DNA from: a virus
Lineage: Duplodnaviria; Heunggongvirae; Uroviricota; Caudoviricetes
Length of the DNA: 64,000 nucleotides
Direction: 5' to 3' (one strand)
IMG/VR virus record: IMGVR_UViG_3300031760_000006
Span: 91,127-155,126 of that record
Shown here: piece after piece, positions 13,937-59,717 of the stretch
Layout of the letters: each line of letters starts with the position of its first letter
How positions within the stretch are numbered: position 1 is the stretch's first letter
Notes under the pieces: model-generated
The model's database searches: none
Seen by the model: only the letters and a program-made list of their open reading frames with translations
Told to the model about the DNA's origin: nothing
Program-made: the position numbers and the translations under genes

Positions 13937-15634
13937 CTAGAATATAAATTTACTTGGTTTATTATTTGGTTTTATATTTTCTTCTATATCTATTTCTTCT
14001 TTTATATCTTCGTTTACTTTCTTATCTTCTGTTTCATTCTCTTCTTGAGACGTATCTATTTTTTTATCTGCTGTAGTGATTGGTACTGAATATTCCTGTA
14101 CTAATTTTTTGACAGCGGTTGCCTTAGTAATATCTATGTTAATGACATGAGTTATATCATAGTCAGTAATAAACAATGGCTTCTCAGTCATAGTACCTAA
14201 ATCAACTTTACTCCAAATAATAATTCGAGTATACTTACCTCTTCTTACTTTATAAATCCAGTAAGCCATATTCGGAGTCTCCATTCCAATAAATTTTTGT
14301 CTTATTGGTTGAAGTTTTTTTAATTCGCTTGGGCTAGGTTCTACAGTAATTGCTCCAACATCCAATTTATTAGCTAAAGCTTTGCTACCTTGTAAAAGAT
14401 TTGCATCTTTATGTGTTGAAGCAATTGTTTCTGAATTAACTTGAGAAGCAGTTAAAATAAACACATTTAATTTTTCAGCAATAGCTTTAAGTTCCGTTGC
14501 AAAAACTAAAAGCATCTGGTATTCTTTTAAGCCGCCACCTGACTTATTATTTATTTCAGACATCAATCTTAATGAACTATGAATATAATCAAAGATAAAA
14601 TACTGCACACCATATTGACGATTATATTTCTTTATAATATTAGTAATATCTGTGATACTAAAATCAGGAATGTGTTCTATAAACAAAGGACTATCTTCAA
14701 TATATCCAATAGATTTAACAACTCTTTCTTTTTCTTCTTTTGTAAGAGTACCGTTCAAAATTGATGCTTCATTTACTTTACTTACCGCAGACATAAATAA
14801 AGTCTGAATTTCATCAGGCGGCATTTCTGTTGTGATATATAACGTAGGTTCGGAAAAGCCTGTGTAAATATAATCGTTTTCATCATCTGACCAAACATAT
14901 GGAACAGCCATTGTACAAGCATCACCTGCGGCTAGTCTTGATTTACCATAACCAGATGGAGCAGAACGCATATATAATTTTCCTAATCTCGCACCTCTTA
15001 CAATCGAATTAAAAAATTCGTTATTCAATGGTAATCCAATATCAGGCTCTTCCTCAAAAGAATCAAGCAACTCTAACATACCTTCCCCAGCTTGAATACC
15101 AACACTCAACGTATTTGTGCAATATCTCATATTGGGAGTAATAACCATTTTGCTTTCAACCCGTTCTACAATTTCTTGCAAACTCATTTCATCAAAAGCA
15201 AATTTCTCTTCGGGATGCATTGTTACTTTTTGTGGGTCATAGATACAACGAGTATCAAAACCTTCTTTTTCATAATACCGAAGCAATCCTAACTTACGCA
15301 ACGAACGATAATATGTAGGATAGTTCTCCACCTTTACCGCTTGAGAAAGAGATAATAAGATTCCTAATCCAGTTGCTTTGGTAAAAACTGCATACTGTTC
15401 AGGAAAAGCAGATAAATATCCATCTACTGCTACGGCATCAATATTTTCAGCACCTTGATTCCACAGGTTAAAGATTGCCGCATAGGACATTTTATAAAAA
15501 GAATCTGTTTCAAAATCATCTTCTGAAAGCGGATAATCTACGTTATCTATTAAAGAGTTATCCGCTAATAAACATCCAAGAACTTGTCCCATCAGAGCAG
15601 TGTCTGATAGTCCTTTCAATTCTGCTACGTTCAT
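13937..15634 (-). CDS. DnaB-like replicative DNA helicase
   Basis: The N-terminus (VLGCLLADNSLID) resembles DnaB. Walker A motif SAPSGYGKS. FILTASQVNSE resembles the DnaB C-terminal motif. Confidence 0.6.
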   Translation of the reverse strand: MNVAELKGLSDTALMGQVLGCLLADNSLIDNVDYPLSEDDFETDSFYKMSYAAIFNLWNQGAENIDAVAVDGYLSAFPEQYAVFTKATGLGILLSLSQAVKVENYPTYYRSLRKLGLLRYYEKEGFDTRCIYDPQKVTMHPEEKFAFDEMSLQEIVERVESKMVITPNMRYCTNTLSVGIQAGEGMLELLDSFEEEPDIGLPLNNEFFNSIVRGARLGKLYMRSAPSGYGKSRLAAGDACTMAVPYVWSDDENDYIYTGFSEPTLYITTEMPPDEIQTLFMSAVSKVNEASILNGTLTKEEKERVVKSIGYIEDSPLFIEHIPDFSITDITNIIKKYNRQYGVQYFIFDYIHSSLRLMSEINNKSGGGLKEYQMLLVFATELKAIAEKLNVFILTASQVNSETIASTHKDANLLQGSKALANKLDVGAITVEPSPSELKKLQPIRQKFIGMETPNMAYWIYKVRRGKYTRIIIWSKVDLGTMTEKPLFITDYDITHVINIDITKATAVKKLVQEYSVPITTADKKIDTSQEENETEDKKVNEDIKEEIDIEENIKPNNKPSKFIF

Positions 15635-16242
15635 TCTCCCTCCTTAATAGATGAAATATCAATCTTTTTACATTTTCTTTTTCTTCTTTTGGGGTTTATT
15701 GTAACAGTTCGAGATTGATATAATTGTGAAGTATCTATTGATTCCATTTCTTTTTCGATGCTTTCAATACTATTAAAGTATCTTTCGGTTTCCGAATAAT
15801 AATATGGAATCAAACCTATTACATTATCAGTTAAAACCTTCTGTAAAATTTCATTTAAGTAAATTAATGTGTTATGCATTTTCTTATATGTAAATTCATA
15901 TTTTCTGATATAGTCTTCCGTTAACGCATACATTTTTACAGGTAAGTTATCTTCATTAAGTATTGTTCTAATGTAATTGTAATAGGCTTTTTTCTCTTGA
16001 TATTCTTGTTCTGATAATGCTTTTTTTGGTTCTCGTCTTTCGGGCTTTGGTATCTTTTGTTTTTCTTTTTTCTTTTTTGCTTCTTTTTCTTTTTTCTTTT
16101 CTGAATTCATTTGCTTTGTGACATTAACCGCAATATCAAAACATTTTCTATGATAAGTTCGTCCTTTATATTCTATTGAGGGAGCGTCTCTTTCGATTCG
16201 CTCCCCACAATATGGACATTTCTTTAAAGCACCTCTAGCCAA
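15631..16242 (-). CDS. hypothetical protein with N-terminal zinc ribbon (KKCPYCGERI) and a Lys/Glu-rich basic central region
   Basis: 203 aa. The sequence AT[AAAGAA]n low complexity encodes a KKKEKEAKKKKEKQK segment. Confidence 0.35.
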   Translation of the reverse strand: MARGALKKCPYCGERIERDAPSIEYKGRTYHRKCFDIAVNVTKQMNSEKKKEKEAKKKKEKQKIPKPERREPKKALSEQEYQEKKAYYNYIRTILNEDNLPVKMYALTEDYIRKYEFTYKKMHNTLIYLNEILQKVLTDNVIGLIPYYYSETERYFNSIESIEKEMESIDTSQLYQSRTVTINPKRRKRKCKKIDISSIKEGE

Positions 16243-36620: not shown

Positions 36621-38033
36621 TTAAGCGGCGATTCCTGCATTCACCTCCATTTCTCTTACAATCGCCTTATATAACTCTGGATGAGTTTTTAAGTTCTTTT
36701 GCATACATAATGGAGAGTAGTAATTCTCAATATGCTTTACTTTTTTCTTGTTATAATGGCTGTTACCATATCTGTTATAAATTTTTGTTCCGTCTTTTAA
36801 TTCAAAGGGTTTGTTACTATTAGGTCTGTAAATCACAACTCCTTCGTCATAAGGTTCGTAACCAATTCCTGCAATATCTTTATGATTTGTCTTGCAAGAT
36901 TTGATACAATCCATGATGAATTCGTTTATTCTTTTTAAATCTTCTTCACAGTTGACAATTGGAAGAATACTTGTTGCCCAAGAATATTCTCCGTTTCCAA
37001 TATAAAGGATTCGATTGACTGCGTTGACTGCCCCCTTCATTGAGATTTTTTTCTTAAGAGTAGCTTCTTTTATCTGTTCTCTTAATTTCTCTAATCTCTT
37101 TCTTGAAATTGTTATTTTACTTCCTTTTATTGAGAATCCTAAGAACGTAATCCATCCGTTTTCATAAACAGATTCAACCTTCTTCGGATTCAATGTTAAT
37201 CCAAAACTCATAAGTCTTGCCTTGAGATAGCCCAAAGCATACTCATGATTCTTACAAACAAAGAGAATGTCATCTGAATAACGAACATACTGTCCGTTGC
37301 AGATTTTGTTCATTTCTTCATCCATGTCATAAAGAAGCACATCAGCTAACCAAGAAGCTACTGCACAGCCTTGCTTTAAAGACTGATAACGATGAACTAA
37401 TTCACCATCAATATAACAAGTATCTTGATGATAATATTTCCTTAAGATTGTGATGATACAAGACTTTCCAAATTCCCTTTCGAATCTGTCAAAGATTGCA
37501 TCAATAAACTCAATAGGTACTGAGTCAAAGTATTTAGAAAGGTCTGCTTTCGCTCCAATCTTTCTTCCTTTTTTAATTTGTCTTCTCTGTTTTCTATTGA
37601 GTTCTTCAAATCTTTTTCTTCTGAATATTTTTTTACTGCCGTGAATAATCCATTTAGATACTTTCACGACAATTTTACCAGTTCCAATTCCCTTCTGATA
37701 AGACAAGCAATGAGGACTTATCCAACCTCCTGCCTTAAGTGTTATAGTGAACAAAGCATTCGTTATAACACTGAGGAATATTCTGTCTTGTCCAGAATTA
37801 ATAAACACTTTCCTGAATTCTCCGGGCTTGTCTTTTGGTATCTGTTGTACATCTGGAATACCAATTGTATACTGTTCCAAGACAGCTTTTTCAAAAATCT
37901 CTTCCGCTCTGTATTCAGGGTTGGAGATTTTATTTAAGATTCCTTGGGGAATCTCTTTTATAATTGCTCCTGTGCGTAAGGCTTCTTCCCAATAAGAATA
38001 TTTTTTGCATTCCTCAAGAAGAATATCTGCCAT
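36621..38033 (-). CDS. reverse transcriptase (retron / DGR / group II-like RT domain; subclass undetermined)
   Basis: RT motifs RKVFINSGQDRIF (1), SYQKGIGTGK (2), KADLSKYFDSVP (3), LKQGCAVASWLADVLL (4), YVRYSDDILFV (5, YxDD), GLTLNPKKV (6) and TFLGFSI (7). Confidence 0.85.
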   Translation of the reverse strand: MADILLEECKKYSYWEEALRTGAIIKEIPQGILNKISNPEYRAEEIFEKAVLEQYTIGIPDVQQIPKDKPGEFRKVFINSGQDRIFLSVITNALFTITLKAGGWISPHCLSYQKGIGTGKIVVKVSKWIIHGSKKIFRRKRFEELNRKQRRQIKKGRKIGAKADLSKYFDSVPIEFIDAIFDRFEREFGKSCIITILRKYYHQDTCYIDGELVHRYQSLKQGCAVASWLADVLLYDMDEEMNKICNGQYVRYSDDILFVCKNHEYALGYLKARLMSFGLTLNPKKVESVYENGWITFLGFSIKGSKITISRKRLEKLREQIKEATLKKKISMKGAVNAVNRILYIGNGEYSWATSILPIVNCEEDLKRINEFIMDCIKSCKTNHKDIAGIGYEPYDEGVVIYRPNSNKPFELKDGTKIYNRYGNSHYNKKKVKHIENYYSPLCMQKNLKTHPELYKAIVREMEVNAGIAA

Positions 38034-43543: not shown

Positions 43544-43731
43544 ATTTTATCTTCCTTTCTATTTTTCTATAGTGTTAAGAACAGCCCAAGCTGTAGCAAC
43601 CAATACCACAGCGATTCCCAAAGGAATTCCCTTACTTCCATAGCAGAGAGGGATAAGCATCCCTCCTACTATTGAAAGGCAGATTGACAGTGTTTCTAGA
43701 ATCTGTGCTGGCTTACTCTGTTTTTTCATTT

Positions 43732-44646
43732 TTATTTCCTTTCTTGTTCTATTTCTTTAATACCTTCTTCGAACATTTCTTGGTCTTTGTCAGACCATTT
43801 ACGAATACCTTTTGCGTATTCTTCTGCTCGAATTTCTTTATATTCCAATTCAGGTTCAAGAGGATAAGCAATCACACCTTTAGCAAAATAGTAATCTCTT
43901 TTCTCTTGGAAAGACGAATTAGCATTAATAGAAGTTGAAGATACAAGTTTATAAGCTACTTCTTTACGTTTCTCTTTTAATTTTTTATCCTGAGATTCAG
44001 GGAATTGTGTAAAAGAACGAAGTAAAGAAGTATCTAAATCTATTATATTTTCTTTATTTTTTATTTCTTTCTCTTCTTCACCCCCTTGCGAAGCACCAAA
44101 GGACATATTATACTTGTTAGACAATTTTGGTAGTGACGGACAATTCTGTCGGACGAAATTGTCTACCCTAGACAATTCTGTCGGACAGTTTTGTCTACCC
44201 CCGACAATATTGTCGGACGAAATTGTCGGACGAAATTGTCTACCCCCGACAATATTGTCTACCCCCCTAGACAATTCTGTCGGACGAAATTGTCTACCCC
44301 CGACAATATTGTCTACCCCCTCATTTAGCTTGGAGAGGTTAGGACGTATAATTCTGTCTTTCGTGTCTGCACCTTCACGGCGATAACTCATTTTTAACAG
44401 TTCCTTTGTTTCAAGGTCTGTTAAATAACGAGTTATATTACGTTCGCTTACACAAAGGATTCGTGCCAAGTATCCGTTGCTAGGACAGCAGAATCCTTTC
44501 CTTTCTGACATGGCAAGGAGTTTTGCGAAAAGCATTATTTCCTTGCCATTTGTTATTTTGATTTCATTTAATGCATGGATTAATTCTGTGTCGATTAAAA
44601 TGAAATCAGTGTTTTCATTTGCGTTTGCATTTGTATTATTATCCAT
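43732..44646 (-). CDS. putative replication initiator / replisome-organizer-like protein with origin iterons inside its coding sequence
   Basis: The N-terminal winged-helix-like region (LARILCVSERNITRYL) resembles DnaD/replisome organizers. The central peptide repeats NIVGGRQFRPT are encoded by DNA iterons. Confidence 0.45.
   Translation of the reverse strand: MDNNTNANANENTDFILIDTELIHALNEIKITNGKEIMLFAKLLAMSERKGFCCPSNGYLARILCVSERNITRYLTDLETKELLKMSYRREGADTKDRIIRPNLSKLNEGVDNIVGGRQFRPTELSRGVDNIVGGRQFRPTISSDNIVGGRQNCPTELSRVDNFVRQNCPSLPKLSNKYNMSFGASQGGEEEKEIKNKENIIDLDTSLLRSFTQFPESQDKKLKEKRKEVAYKLVSSTSINANSSFQEKRDYYFAKGVIAYPLEPELEYKEIRAEEYAKGIRKWSDKDQEMFEEGIKEIEQERK
44120..44330. repeat. iteron array: 6–7 copies of ...GACAATTCTGTCGGACGAAATTGTCTACCC... 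containing the palindrome GACAATATTGTC
   Basis: TTGTCTACCC occurs six times. There are nested 12–30 bp direct and dyad-symmetric repeats. Confidence 0.75.
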
Positions 44647-44692
44647 AATTATCCCCCTAGTATTTTGCTTGATTTAATTTAATTAGTTACGG

Positions 44693-47023: not shown

Positions 47024-47054
47024 GACTTATCACCTCCTTCATAATGGTTAAAAC

Positions 47055-47130
47055 GAATGTCAGGTTTCGAACCTGATGCCTAACCTTAAGGATTAGTTGG
47101 GGTCACCAAACATAATACAAAATACCACAT
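47055..47130 (-). ncRNA. tRNA-like element (good T-arm TCAGG-TTCGAAA-CCTGA, possible anticodon arm). No clean acceptor stem found by eye.
   Basis: The minus strand reads ggtgaccccaactaatccttaaggttaggcatcaggttcgaaacctgacattcgtt. Confidence 0.2.
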
Positions 47131-48266
47131 ATTGGCAGAAAATGCTATCAATATGCGGTATTAACATATTATGTGCTTGCCGTGGATAGTATCTTTACTG
47201 TGTACTATCCCATTCGTTAACTGATAAGTTGATATTATCCCCTAAGATATTTATAGACTTGTGGTGCTGATATTTTAAGCGTCCAAGTCTTTGTAACACA
47301 TGACAGCCCTCTCAATACTACAGTCATTAAACAGACGTCATGCATGGACTTTCACCATAGGATTCAGAGTAATAGATAATTATATCATTATACTCCACTT
47401 TTCCCGTCATAAGCGTTACCTCATGATATACCGCATCCACCATTGCAGTACGTTCTTTTCACCTGAGTAGCTTCCTCACCCTGACGTTTTGATTCCGCTC
47501 TAATCGACTCTGACCCACCTCACCACAAGGTAGTCTCCTCCGAAAAACGGGTGGTTGGGATTGTACTTAGGTCATAGCTAGAATATAATCCTAGTCATAA
47601 CAGTACATTCCTCGGATAATCCCCTGCGACTTAACGCAAACATTCCTCATCGACCATACGCAAGGTCATTCGGAGCTTTCAAAACATAATGCTCGTATAC
47701 TAAGAGTTTTCAAGGCTCATGCGGTATACAACATCGCAGATTTACTCACAACCTACTAGTCCTGTTTCAGCCTCAGAATATTCCTGATGTTTTTCACCAG
47801 TGTTATCTAGGGACTTCTCCACAGTATCTACGAATTTCACGTAGACCCTCAGGAATCCTATTTGTTCCAAGATACGTGTTTCTGGCGGTAAAATATACCT
47901 ATAGTTCTGCAAAGCAGTCCTATGGCGTTTTATATTGATGCATCGTTGCGATTGTCCACTATGGCTTAACAGAGTATTCCACGTTGCGGATTTTCACGGT
48001 ACAATACACCCCTACAAGACGCTATGTCTAGCCAAAGCCAGTCATGCCCGCTTGGTGTACACAATATCTCCCCATACGTCTCCCCATGCTTCACGGAGTC
48101 CAGTGTTAATGGGCTACCAGTGCCGTCTACCGTAGACGGTGAGTCTCTCACATGCGTATGGTATTGTCAAGGTACGAACTTAGCCTAGTATCTCAAGATA
48201 AACTTCTACCCAGTTTGGTAGGGAGTCCTAGATTCCACAATCCTATATGAGTGCGTTAACACGGTG

Positions 48267-48354
48267 GTCGTAACCAGAATCACTCACTTGGTGCCACAGT
48301 TCGTACCATATATTAGTCGTAACCAGAATCACTCACTTGGTGCCACAGTTCGTA
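48267..48354. repeat. 40-bp direct repeat GTCGTAACCAGAATCACTCACTTGGTGCCACAGTTCGTAC, two copies with a 48-bp period
   Basis: Identical copies lie at 48267..48306 and 48315..48354. Confidence 0.8.
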
Positions 48355-48542
48355 CTAATCTTACACTCGGAGATGTATCCCCAAGGACATAGTATATCCC
48401 ATGATATTCAGCTAAAACTCAACTGTGGTCAGTTGATACGAGCCGTTGGGAGTCGAACCCATATAGCCACCTATTGGCACGGTCGCAGACTAGGGATTGT
48501 GGGTCTATGGTATTGTTATAGTTGTGGGTCTGGTGTATAGTC

Positions 48543-49896: not shown

Positions 49897-49983
49897 TTAT
49901 CCACAATTTATCCACAATTCCACCAACTCCCCATCTCCCCACCGCACTTGACAAAAATCGATTTTTGTGGTATACTATCCACA
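49897..49983. promoter_or_regulatory. cluster of three DnaA boxes: TTATCCACA at 49897..49905 and 49908..49916, cTATCCACA at 49975..49983
   Basis: All three are exact matches to the DnaA box consensus TTATNCACA. The third overlaps the promoter -10 region. Confidence 0.6.
49948..49976 (+). promoter_or_regulatory. sigma70-type promoter TTGACA-17-TATACT (TG-extended) for the rightward arm
   Basis: TTGACAaaaatcgatttttgtggTATACT. A CCACACCAA x3 repeat lies in the 5' UTR. Confidence 0.6.
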
Positions 49984-53249: not shown

Positions 53250-54563
53250 ATGAGTTATTGTGCTTACATCACGACAATAAATAGCATCAGTAAGCACCCT
53301 AATGCCGACCGTCTTCAGATAGTAGAAGTATTTGGTCTTCATGTTATTGTTGATAATTCTTACTACAAAGGACAAAGAGTTGTTTACTTCCCTGTTGATG
53401 GTCAGCTAGATTTAGGTTTTGCTGATGAAAATAATTTGATTAGAAAAAAAGATGAAAATGGTAATAATATTGGCGGTTACATGGATGCTAATAAAAGAAA
53501 TATTACTGCCATTAAATTACGAGGAGAAAAGTCAGAAGGATTATTACTTCCTATTGAATCTCTGTCTAAATATACTGATATCACTAAATTAAATGATGGT
53601 GATACAATTACCATCTTGGGTGACGTTGAAATATGTAAGAAATATATCCCAAGAACGAATAGAAGAATAAGAAATGGTAACAACAATCGCAAAAATAAGA
53701 AACACCATGTAGATGTAGCTCCATTATTTGAGCGTCATGTTGAAACAGAACAGCTTGCATATCATTTGAGTGATTTTTATGTTGGTGACCAAATTCAGAT
53801 TACGCTTAAAATGCATGGTACATCACAAAGGACTGGCTATCTTCCTGTGCTACAGGGGTATAAAAGAACTATTCTTGATAAGCTGTTCCGTAGAGAAGGT
53901 AAGCCAATTTATGAATATGGGTATGTTCATGGAACAAGACGTACTGTATTAGACAATTTTGATAACGGGTATTATGGTAATGATTCGTTCCGCAAGCCTT
54001 CGGCAGAATTCTTCGAAGGAAAGCTTCATAAAGGTGAAACTGTTTATTATGAAGTAGTTGGTTATGTTAATGAAACTACGCCAATTATGCCGTCTGGAAA
54101 CAATAAGAAAGTTGGAAAAGATTTTGTCAAACAATATGGTGATACCACTACATTTAATTATAGTTGTGGTAAAGGACAATCTGATTTTTATGTGTATAGG
54201 ATGACAATGACTAACGAAGATGGAGATGTTTTTGAATACTCTCCTCACCAAATTAAATACCGTTGCGAACAAATGGGTTGTAAATATGTCCCAGTCTTTA
54301 TGGAATCTTTTATTCCAAATGGTACAATTGTTAGTGCTGGTGAATGGGTAAAACGATGTGCTGAAGAGTATTATGACGGAGCAGACCCAATAGGTAAAAA
54401 TCACATTAGAGAAGGTGTTGTCATAAGAATTGTTAACTGCCCCAAGTTTACGGCATATAAACACAAGAATTTCAATTTTAAATTATTGGCTGGAATTATT
54501 ACGGACAACTTGAAGGATTCGCAGATTGAGAAAATGTCAGAAGATTTGTTAAGTGAAATTTAA
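53250..54563 (+). CDS. Rnl2-like ATP-dependent RNA ligase fused to an N-terminal tRNA-binding (EMAP/Myf-like OB) domain
   Basis: SKHPNADRLQIVEVFG resembles the tRNA_bind signature. Motif I is KMHGTS (Rnl2 type KxHGxN). Motif IV is EGVVIR. Motif V is YKHKNFNF. Confidence 0.6.
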   Translation: MSYCAYITTINSISKHPNADRLQIVEVFGLHVIVDNSYYKGQRVVYFPVDGQLDLGFADENNLIRKKDENGNNIGGYMDANKRNITAIKLRGEKSEGLLLPIESLSKYTDITKLNDGDTITILGDVEICKKYIPRTNRRIRNGNNNRKNKKHHVDVAPLFERHVETEQLAYHLSDFYVGDQIQITLKMHGTSQRTGYLPVLQGYKRTILDKLFRREGKPIYEYGYVHGTRRTVLDNFDNGYYGNDSFRKPSAEFFEGKLHKGETVYYEVVGYVNETTPIMPSGNNKKVGKDFVKQYGDTTTFNYSCGKGQSDFYVYRMTMTNEDGDVFEYSPHQIKYRCEQMGCKYVPVFMESFIPNGTIVSAGEWVKRCAEEYYDGADPIGKNHIREGVVIRIVNCPKFTAYKHKNFNFKLLAGIITDNLKDSQIEKMSEDLLSEI

Positions 54564-56746: not shown

Positions 56747-57538
56747 ATGGCATTTAATGACGAACTTGGCAACAGAATGAAACAAAATTATGAAACAATT
56801 TCTAAAACAAGATTAATTCGTAGAACACCAGTAGCCATTCGCATTGATGGTAAAGCTTTTCACACTTTTACTAGAGGTTTTAAAAAGCCATTTGATGATA
56901 TTCTTATCAAATCAATGCAAGAGACCATGAAATATCTTTGTGAGAATATTCAAGGCTGTGTACTTGGTTATACACAGTCAGATGAGATTACATTAATTCT
57001 ACAGGACTACAAAACTTTTGAGACTCAAGCTTGGTTTGATTATGAAGTCCAGAAGATGTGCAGCGTTTCGGCATCAATGGCAACGATGGTTTTTAACAAA
57101 AAGTTTAAAGAGATGGCTTATTGTTTTGTTGATGAAAATGAAGATAATGATAGTATTTGTAATTACTGTGACACTTTAATGAAAGCCGTAGAAAAAGGAG
57201 CAATGTTTGACTCTCGCTGTTTCAACATTCCTAAAGAAGAGGTAACCAATCTACTATTTTGGCGACAGCTTGACGCATCCCGAAATTCCGTTCAGATGGT
57301 TGGTCGTGCTAATTTTTCTCATAAAGAATTACATGGTAAAAACTCCTCTCAGATTGATGAGATGTTATTAGCAAAAGGAATTGATTTTCATACATACCCT
57401 ACACATCAAAAACGTGGTTCTTGTTGTATTAAAGATAAAGATGGACATTGGTTTGTTGATAATGAGATTCCTATGTTTAAAGGCGAAGGTAGAGAATATA
57501 TTGAGAAATTGATTAATTGTGAGGAGGTAACAGCATGA
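56747..57538 (+). CDS. Thg1-like protein (tRNA-His guanylyltransferase family, 3'-5' nucleotidyltransferase)
   Basis: AIRIDGKAFHTFTRGFKKPFDD and GYTQSDEITLIL match the Thg1/TLP palm motifs. Confidence 0.75.
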   Translation: MAFNDELGNRMKQNYETISKTRLIRRTPVAIRIDGKAFHTFTRGFKKPFDDILIKSMQETMKYLCENIQGCVLGYTQSDEITLILQDYKTFETQAWFDYEVQKMCSVSASMATMVFNKKFKEMAYCFVDENEDNDSICNYCDTLMKAVEKGAMFDSRCFNIPKEEVTNLLFWRQLDASRNSVQMVGRANFSHKELHGKNSSQIDEMLLAKGIDFHTYPTHQKRGSCCIKDKDGHWFVDNEIPMFKGEGREYIEKLINCEEVTA

Positions 57539-58775: not shown

Positions 58776-59717
58776 ATGAATATAAAACCAAAATTAATCA
58801 TGCTATGCGGATTAAGCGGTAGTGGCAAATCAACCTATGCTAGAGATTTAATAAAACGTAAAAAACCCAACGATGATTCGGATGATGCAAATAACACTTT
58901 CCTCTTCTCTTCTGATGATTTGAGACAGGAATTATTTGGTGATGTCAATGACCAATCACATAATCAGGAATTGTTTCAAGAGCTTCGTCGCAGAATTAAA
59001 GATTGTCTCAGAAAAGGCAACAATGCAATATATGACGCAACCAATATTAAGTCAAAACTAAGAATTGCTTTCTTGAATGAGTTAAAAAACATTGATTGCT
59101 TCAAGTCTTGTCACATCATTTACCGTCCTTATAATGAGTGTTTACTAATGAATCGTGGTCGAACAAGAAGTGTGCCAGACTATGTAATCACAAGACAGTA
59201 TATGAATTGGTACACGCCTTGGTATTTCGAAGGCTGGGATGAAATCAAATGGATAGGTGATGATACGTTTTCTTGTTACTTTGCAAATGAGATAGCAAAA
59301 TATAATAATTTTTTACAGCATAATCATCATCATGAATTGACACTTGGACAGCATTGTTTTGAAGCCAAAGAAATAGTTGCGATGAATGTAGAAGATAATT
59401 TAAACTTGACAATTGCTGCTTGGTTACATGATATTGGCAAACCTTTTACGAAAACTTTCAAAGATTCTAAAGGCAATCCAACTAAGGATGCCCATTATTA
59501 CCAGCATCATTGTGTAGGTGCTTATGATGCACTTGGATTGTATTATGGAAGAAATCCAGAAGTTAACAAAATAAAGATATCTGCTTATATCACATACCAC
59601 ATGCATCCTTATTTTTGGAAAAATCCAAAGACAGAAGCAAGATATAGAAAACGATGGGGTAATGAATTTTTTAATGACATCATGTTGTTGCACGAAGCAG
59701 ATAAATTGGCACATTAG
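58776..59717 (+). CDS. P-loop polynucleotide-kinase-like domain fused to HD-superfamily phosphohydrolase
   Basis: Walker A motif LCGLSGSGKST. The C-terminal HD motif is LHDIGK, with His residues upstream. Confidence 0.55.
   Translation: MNIKPKLIMLCGLSGSGKSTYARDLIKRKKPNDDSDDANNTFLFSSDDLRQELFGDVNDQSHNQELFQELRRRIKDCLRKGNNAIYDATNIKSKLRIAFLNELKNIDCFKSCHIIYRPYNECLLMNRGRTRSVPDYVITRQYMNWYTPWYFEGWDEIKWIGDDTFSCYFANEIAKYNNFLQHNHHHELTLGQHCFEAKEIVAMNVEDNLNLTIAAWLHDIGKPFTKTFKDSKGNPTKDAHYYQHHCVGAYDALGLYYGRNPEVNKIKISAYITYHMHPYFWKNPKTEARYRKRWGNEFFNDIMLLHEADKLAH

Follow-up and report, generated by a model that had tools for sequence, protein, structure and literature searches.

According to a 2021 review (PMC8270828), how SPbeta-type phages replicate has "not yet been investigated". 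The gene at 43732-44646 raises the question of whether a phage of this type carries its replication origin inside the gene of its own initiator. The window (the whole stretch of viral DNA analyzed, 64,000 nt) belongs to a large low-GC temperate phage with related contigs of 123 and 156 kb. Its Pol III alpha shares 39% identity with SPbeta YorL along 99% of the length, and its phage replication genes include a DnaB-type helicase (13937-15634, with a 203-aa gene upstream of it at 15631-16242), a Toprim primase, an NAD-dependent ligase and RecD2; integrases and a Sak4-like annealing protein are also encoded. With a YorL-type Pol III alpha, a DnaB-type helicase, a primase and related contigs of more than 120 kb, the phage was assigned to the SPbeta-like group. 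No homologue of the initiator was detected in SPbeta itself (tblastn, E ≤ 1e-3). Synteny to SPbeta through a DUF932 gene was considered and dropped; it led to an unrelated human-gut element (MT835627).

The original prediction placed iterons inside a replisome-organizer-like gene, in an arrangement like that of lambda O. On the basis of the sequence comparisons described here, we consider it likely that a large SPbeta-like temperate phage has an initiator-dependent origin at this locus, inside the gene of the initiator itself. A concrete, testable origin and initiator are now proposed for a rumen/gut branch of SPbeta-type phages. The locus contains the following features:

44721-44693, minus strand: sigma-A-type promoter of the initiator operon, TTGACA-17-TAAAAT, extended -10 TG
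44652-44657, minus strand: ribosome-binding site GGGGGA of the initiator gene
43732-44646, minus strand: initiator gene, 304 aa, ATG start (ORF list)
44332-44607, minus strand: coding region of the winged-helix DNA-binding domain (AlphaFold2 model and HTH_36 match)
44118-44315, no strand assigned: iteron array, eleven 12-bp dyads GACRnnnnTGTC plus one degenerate site (motif scan)
44073-44121, no strand assigned: constant block leading from the iterons to the AT-rich tract, with an invariant GGTGCTTCGCA at 44087-44097
44031-44079, no strand assigned: AT-rich tract, candidate DNA-unwinding element (GC scan)
43559-43729, minus strand: small hydrophobic ORF, 56 aa, beginning 3 nt past the initiator stop codon

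Iteron array and candidate initiator protein

Eleven 12-bp sites fitted GACANNNNTGTC with at most one mismatch within 44139-44313 (starts at 44139, 44152, 44171, 44184, 44203, 44216, 44229, 44248, 44270, 44283 and 44302), and a degenerate twelfth site was found at 44120-44131. Start-to-start spacings of the eleven sites were 13, 19, 13, 19, 13, 13, 19, 22, 13 and 19, with the paired spacings of 13 and 19 totaling 32 bp. Tandem Repeats Finder described the array as 5.2 copies of a 32-bp period, plus 13-bp and 19-bp sub-periods. Seven of the nine exact matches to GACANNNNTGTC in the window were inside the array; 0.7 exact matches per window were expected from shuffled sequences, and none of 100 shuffles reached nine. 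When one mismatch was allowed, 11 of the 25 matches in the 64 kb fell within these 175 bp, where 0.04 sites were expected from the background rate outside the array (Poisson P for at least 11 sites, approximately 6e-24).

The six to seven repeats of the original prediction are real, but they are better counted as 11 to 12 short dyads or as approximately five copies of a 32-bp unit. A 30-mer that had been given as the repeat, GACAATTCTGTCGGACGAAATTGTCTACCC, was found exactly at 44139 and 44270 and as a variant at 44171, but the true unit is the 12-bp dyad. The palindrome GACAATATTGTC, reported as perfect, was present in three copies (44203, 44248 and 44302), and the peptide repeats expected in the translation of the initiator were found as DNIVGGRQFRPT (twice) and DNIVGGRQNCPT (once).

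The array spans codons 112-170 of 304, in the middle of the gene. Identical 12-mers started at codon positions 0, 1 and 2 in the orientation of the gene (GACAATTTCGTC in frames 1, 1, 2 and 0; GACAGAATTGTC in frames 2, 2 and 1), and none of the spacings of 13, 19 and 22 is a multiple of three. Because all three frames are used, the spacings are not multiples of three and the encoded linker is of low confidence, the repeats have been kept as DNA and not as peptide. Constraint at the protein level on the repeat segment is minimal, given the very low confidence with which the linker was modeled.

The AlphaFold2 model of the initiator, built from a 14-sequence alignment, consisted of a winged helix (residues 14-105), a low-confidence linker (residues 109-202) and a helical C-terminal domain (residues 207-303). 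Block-mean pLDDT was 80-93 in the winged helix, in which residues 68-80 formed the predicted recognition helix and residues 84-102 the wing hairpin. It was approximately 22-31 in linker residues 131-200, and pLDDT was approximately 80 in the C-terminal domain, which had four to five helices. The linker (109-202) is exactly the portion encoded by the iteron array and the AT-rich tract.

Pfam HTH_36 (PF13730) matched residues 33-84 with 31.4 bits (gathering cut-off, 25), and the precomputed annotation of the orthologues likewise contained the HTH_36 domain. Among the 14 PHROG matches at E ≤ 0.1, 11, including the seven best, were annotated as replication initiator, O-like or DnaD-like (E 2e-7 to 1e-2), and all 11 ran through the N-terminus. 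The "replication initiation" and "O-like" families matched weakly (E 2e-7 to 1e-5), as did individual O-like families (phrog_391, 1.1e-5; phrog_678, 3.3e-4; phrog_345, 2.9e-3), and PHROG 186, "DnaD-like helicase loader", matched via the winged helix only (E 1.7e-4). The earlier impression of a winged-helix initiator at the N-terminus was borne out by the HTH_36 score above cut-off, the pLDDT of 80-93 and the PHROG initiation families. A comparison with the Phage_rep_org_N and DnaD profiles turned out negative: Pfam gave no match at E ≤ 1 to Phage_rep_O, Phage_rep_org_N, DnaB_2/DnaD or RepA_N. Because the Phage_rep_org_N and DnaD/DnaB_2 profiles were unmatched, the term replisome-organizer-like is valid by architecture only.

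Other searches led to the same domain. By tblastn, the N-termini of replication proteins of lactococcal P335-type and staphylococcal phages were 30-35% identical to the initiator. In Foldseek searches of the PDB, the N-terminal domains of RepA_N proteins (4pql and 4pt7) ranked first and MarR-type winged helices followed; all of these top matches were weak (E approximately 0.03), and 4pql and 4pt7 (TM 0.5) matched no better than the MarR regulators did. Fold matches among the predicted viral structures of BFVD included phage O proteins, replication proteins and a replisome organizer. A search of PDB sequences with the family profile returned ZitR alone (E = 0.42). Every homology of the initiator to known initiators runs via the generic winged helix. 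A profile search of 1.84 billion representatives recovered 6074 proteins via the N-terminal domain and only approximately five full-length matches, which indicates that the C-terminal domain is specific to a small group; no match of this domain to anything known was found in the Pfam, PDB sequence and 1.84-billion-representative profile searches. Several distant relatives have peptide repeats directly after the winged helix, which hints that intragenic arrays are general across this winged-helix superfamily.

Orthologous arrays, site classes and the AT-rich tract

A homologue search over 5.8 billion proteins yielded 15 homologues, every one of them metagenomic and several from rumen samples; DNA was recovered for 12 of the 15. 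No nucleotide matches were found in cultured phages and plasmids, no relatives were found in reference bacterial genomes, and IMG/VR contained one distant N-terminal match only. The repeats, whose absence from orthologous genes had been named as an argument against an origin, were present as dyad arrays in 12/12 orthologous genes with recovered DNA. All 12 arrays occupied the equivalent position in the gene, with 3-12 copies and four site types:

Class A, GACAnnnnTGTC, spacing 13/19/22: window (11 copies), L001 (11), L008 (8), L009 (5), L012 (8) and L006 (12)
Class A-like array: L015
Class B, GAAGnnnnCTTC, spacing 14/18, sum again 32: L002 (8 copies), L010 (8) and L011 (3)
Class C, GACATCCATGTC, spacing 12/19/23: L003 (8 copies) and L013 (5)
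Class D, ACTTCnnGAAGT, spacing 14: L014 (5 copies)

One orthologous initiator gene, on a 5.5-kb metagenome contig, was broken inside the array into two ORFs (P0012 and P0013), by either a repeat-slippage frameshift or an assembly error.

Comparison of proteins from different site classes placed the differences in a narrow segment. P0004, from a gene with class B (GAAGnnnnCTTC) sites, shared residues 14-67 completely with the window protein (100% identity) and was 93% identical to it in the C-terminal domain, yet identity was 69% for the recognition helix and only 35% for the wing (residues 81-104). P0007 and P0008, from genes with class A (GACAnnnnTGTC) sites, showed 67-70% identity to the window protein over residues 14-67 and 28-29% over the C-terminal domain; the recognition helix was 85-92% and the wing approximately 60% identical, and the EGADTK-R motif was kept. 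In these alignments, iteron class followed residues ~73-104 (the last part of the recognition helix plus the wing) and nothing else in the protein, a co-variation that may partly reflect linkage in one recombination cassette because the wing-coding DNA directly abuts the iterons. It is the one indirect indication that the initiator binds the iterons. Together with the iterons, this protein segment behaves as a single specificity cassette that can be exchanged, with at least four origin specificities among close phages. That this cassette is mobile, swapped whole between near-identical phages and bounded downstream by the GGTGCTTCGCA block, we regard as possible rather than probable. If it were so, pressure against cross-talk or origin titration among phages or satellites residing together would have produced the four or more specificities, and the family would offer winged helices naturally matched to their 12-bp targets. 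The orthologue series, near-identical save for the wing and with differing dyads, is useful for the study of winged-helix specificity and for orthogonal replicons.

The sequence after the last iteron was less variable than the sites. The GGTGCTTCGCA block followed the last iteron in 12 of 13 genes (the window and 12 orthologues), of which 11 represent three iteron classes and one is the class D locus L014; the exception was L015, in which the exact GGTGCTTCGCA motif was absent. In most genes the constant block reads ...TCTAACAAGTATAATATGTCCTTCGGTGCTTCGCAGGGGG..., and its codons GGT-GCT-TCG were identical across five divergent lineages. None of 19 other invariant residues with codons of at least three-fold degeneracy kept a single codon (Fisher, p = 6.5e-4), and TCG was little used at other conserved serines of the gene family (2 of 15 serine codons). 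This codon conservation points to either a DNA-level element or a homogenized recombination joint; GGTGCTTCGCA may act as a recombination joint, bind a host factor or form a small hairpin.

Beyond this block, the lowest-GC 40-nt window (44031-44070) had a GC content of 10%. The AT-rich tract lies 69 nt beyond the array in the window and has 82% pyrimidines on the plus strand, i.e., a purine-rich coding strand. By GC content it ranks among the lowest 0.37% of the 40-nt windows of the 64 kb, a stretch with 27 comparably AT-rich tracts in all (26 besides the candidate unwinding tract). In 11 of the 11 loci analyzed, the 40-mer with the highest AT content in the gene (GC 10-17%) was located 50-71 nt past the last iteron, and in 9 of the 11 this 40-mer was at least 70% purine on the coding strand. 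The lambda O-like arrangement that had been proposed, with mid-gene iterons followed by an AT-rich tract as in ori-lambda, was upheld, and both elements were conserved in the 11 loci analyzed.

Alternative readings of the locus and its surroundings

A second candidate origin, possibly host-dependent, is located approximately 5.6 kb from the iteron array, in a region with DnaA boxes and a promoter:

49897 and 49908: two perfect DnaA boxes, TTATCCACA (motif scan)
49975: near-perfect DnaA box, CTATCCACA (motif scan)
49948-49976, plus strand: promoter TTGACA-17-TATACT, with the third DnaA box (CTATCCACA) overlapping its -10 element

It is unlikely, in our estimate, that the main origin is this DnaA-box promoter region at approximately 49.9 kb, with the array as a secondary origin or fork-pausing site, or that the initiator is merely an auxiliary organizer. 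The DnaA boxes are located where transcription diverges and skew changes sign, the DnaA-box/promoter block is conserved in relatives, and SPP1 provides a precedent with two gp38-bound origins (PMC6316719). The GC/AT-skew sign change and the transcription divergence at approximately 50 kb also count against an origin at 44.2 kb. However, skew does not discriminate as an origin marker because it follows gene orientation in phages, and GC skew was discarded as a marker here for tracking gene orientation. The DnaA boxes flank and overlap a consensus promoter and are equally possibly operators, one of them is degenerate in L001 and L002, and no 40-nt window with GC ≤ 10% was found beside them. No second GACAnnnnTGTC cluster was found elsewhere in the 64 kb. 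Downstream of the box and promoter region (49897-49983), relatives differ in the length of a CCA/CCAC-rich 5′ leader.

Plasmid and phage centromeres are typically arrays of approximately 10 short repeats to which small proteins of the winged-helix or ribbon-helix-helix type bind, and large temperate phages are able to persist as plasmids. The array resembles such centromeres in its repeat number and putative winged-helix binder, and plasmid persistence is possible for a large temperate phage; the array might be a centromere-like site for partition or filament assembly with a winged-helix adaptor, in the style of TubR-tubC or ParR-parC, and not an origin. We consider this very unlikely. No partition NTPase gene (ParA, ParM or TubZ-like) was recognized near the initiator gene, and the gene upstream differs between relatives (346 aa in the window and L008, 186 aa in L001). 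Moreover, the array lies inside a gene with an AT-rich tract behind it, and the annotated PHROG matches are overwhelmingly to replication initiation.

The sigma-A-type promoter of the initiator gene, described earlier as a consensus promoter, has 11/12 matches and is the joint best in 43-50 kb. It was kept in 10/10 orthologous loci with enough upstream sequence, irrespective of iteron class; the promoters of L006 and L012 differed in sequence yet read TTGACA-17-TATAAT. An autoregulatory half-site, GACAAAATT, was considered in the -35 region and rejected; the identical promoter was found in class B and class C phages. Because the promoter is identical across iteron classes, it lacks a class-specific operator. 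This bears on a further reading, in which the initiator is a transcription regulator and its intragenic sites are only operators or an autoregulatory roadblock. Its fold is as near to MarR-type repressors as to RepA_N, HTH_36 is generic, and dyad 12-mers are typical operators. Nevertheless, it would be unusual for operators to number 11 or 12 inside a coding region while the promoter itself has none, and the conserved AT-rich tract and the constant block are left unaccounted for, so that we judge a purely regulatory role highly improbable.

That the repeats are a recently expanded peptide-repeat linker or a product of replication slippage with no DNA function is scarcely credible: copy number does vary from 3 to 12, peptide repeats are visible and the P0012/P0013 orthologue is split inside the array, but one and the same 12-mer occurs in all three frames, all units are dyads, the four dyad types share a 12-bp format and position, and the segment is modeled as disordered.

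Several further features surround the candidate origin. A gene of 56-61 aa follows the initiator gene in nine relatives (L001, L002, L003, L006, L008, L009, L011, L012 and L014), and the 56-aa ORF of the window belongs to the initiator operon. By appearance it has two transmembrane helices, and it might be a membrane tether for replication. No helicase-loader gene was recognizable adjoining the initiator gene, in contrast to the O-P and 38-39-40 gene groups of lambda and SPP1; this counts against the origin reading, as do the generic nature of the homology to initiators and the other comparably AT-rich tracts of the window.

A gene-free block of approximately 1.5 kb (47030-48540 in the window; 3104-4624 in L008) had a GC content of approximately 45%, vs. 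33-37% around it, and contained a tandem 52-nt repeat (48262-48365) and hairpins resembling tRNA T-arms (47060-47076 and 48444-48470). The 47.0-48.5-kb block had no Rfam match even at E ≤ 1 and no ARAGORN match, and an Rfam scan of the whole window gave nothing at the gathering threshold. The block may encode a large structured RNA; it lies upstream of the initiator operon and is represented by two near-identical copies only. At the same relative place, four relatives had a different conserved gene-free block of approximately 1.3 kb, which opens with a Pistol self-cleaving ribozyme (RF02679) on the initiator strand (53-55 bits; gathering threshold, 34.5):

L001, 5982-6046: Pistol ribozyme, RF02679
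L002, 2708-2774: Pistol ribozyme, RF02679
L003, 1416-1480: Pistol ribozyme, RF02679
L012, 316-384: Pistol ribozyme, RF02679

The ribozyme is followed by at least six hairpins with differing 5-bp stems and a common GCTTCA loop, and it was absent from the window and L008.

Farther away, a reverse transcriptase of 470 aa (RVT_1, E 4e-18; 36621-38033, minus strand) was conserved in relatives. It lies downstream of DUF932 genes and, in part of the relatives, of a PC4-like gene as well. A cluster on the plus strand of the rightward arm contained RNA ligase, tRNA-His guanylyltransferase-like and polynucleotide-kinase-like genes (53250-54563, 56747-57538 and 58776-59717) and looks like a tRNA or RNA repair module.

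Proposed mechanism and comparison with known systems

If the locus is an initiator-dependent origin, host RNA polymerase would transcribe the initiator gene early from the consensus promoter. The protein, with its predicted N-terminal winged helix, flexible linker and helical C-terminal domain, would bind as winged-helix dimers to the 11 to 12 GACRnnnnTGTC dyads packed in approximately 200 bp in the middle of the gene. Because alternate sites in the 13+19 pairs are 32 bp apart, i.e., approximately three helical turns, a bent or wrapped complex like the lambda O-some could form. This nucleoprotein complex would destabilize the AT-rich, purine-skewed tract approximately 70 bp further on, and the C-terminal domain would recruit the phage DnaB-type helicase, primase and Pol III alpha, which are encoded 28-36 kb away. 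Binding, unwinding and helicase recruitment are all steps that we infer.

In ori-lambda, the iterons and then an AT-rich tract are located inside the initiator gene, and iteron number is four in lambda vs. six in Stx phages, in which the additional iterons add residues to the O protein (PMC7466680). The locus resembles this system in its mid-gene position, in having dyad iterons (the targets of the N-terminal domain in lambda) with an AT-rich tract after them, and in the variation of iteron copy number between relatives. The proteins are similar in size (304 aa here vs. approximately 299 aa for lambda O), and PHROG "O-like" families match the initiator weakly. In contrast, the initiator has no Pfam Phage_rep_O match, the sites are 12 bp vs. 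19 bp long and number 11-12 vs. 4-6, and no P-like loader gene is present downstream; the phage is of a low-GC Gram-positive type and has its own Pol III alpha and DnaB.

SPP1 gp38 recruits a DnaB-family helicase and binds direct repeats that its own gene contains, adjacent to an AT-rich unwinding element; two gp38-bound origins, oriL and oriR, are present, and oriL is within gene 38 (PMC6316719). Repeats inside the initiator gene beside an AT-rich tract are common to oriL and the present locus, whereas gp38 itself showed no sequence match to the initiator (Pfam, PHROG and tblastn). In SPP1, genes 39 (loader) and 40 (helicase) directly follow gene 38, whereas the helicase gene is approximately 28 kb away here, and no second, oriR-like array was seen in the 64-kb window.

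RepA_N initiators (pSK41, pTZ2162 and PLE RepA) bind semi-palindromic iterons as N-terminal winged-helix dimers and have a variable, host-specific or replisome-specific C-terminal domain (PMC7145576). The initiator also has a predicted winged-helix N-terminus, for which 4pql and 4pt7 were the best Foldseek matches in the PDB (weak, E approximately 0.03), but it has no Pfam match to RepA_N (PF06970), its fold match is no better than that to MarR regulators, and its iterons have no central poly-A tract where the arms converge. As Weaver reportedly described in 2009, many RepA_N plasmids have their origin inside repA.

The closest sequence relatives in cultured phages were Orf269 of phi31.1, ORF235 of ul36.1 and ORF016 of phage 77, which are annotated as replication initiation proteins and were 30-35% identical over residues 36-150. 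Their alignment with the initiator is limited to the N-terminal quarter to third, and no relationship exists between the C-terminal domains. Lactococcal phages have origins within the initiator gene. With the present locus, the known class of initiator genes carrying their own origin gains a candidate member, and the general view of phage origins is unchanged.
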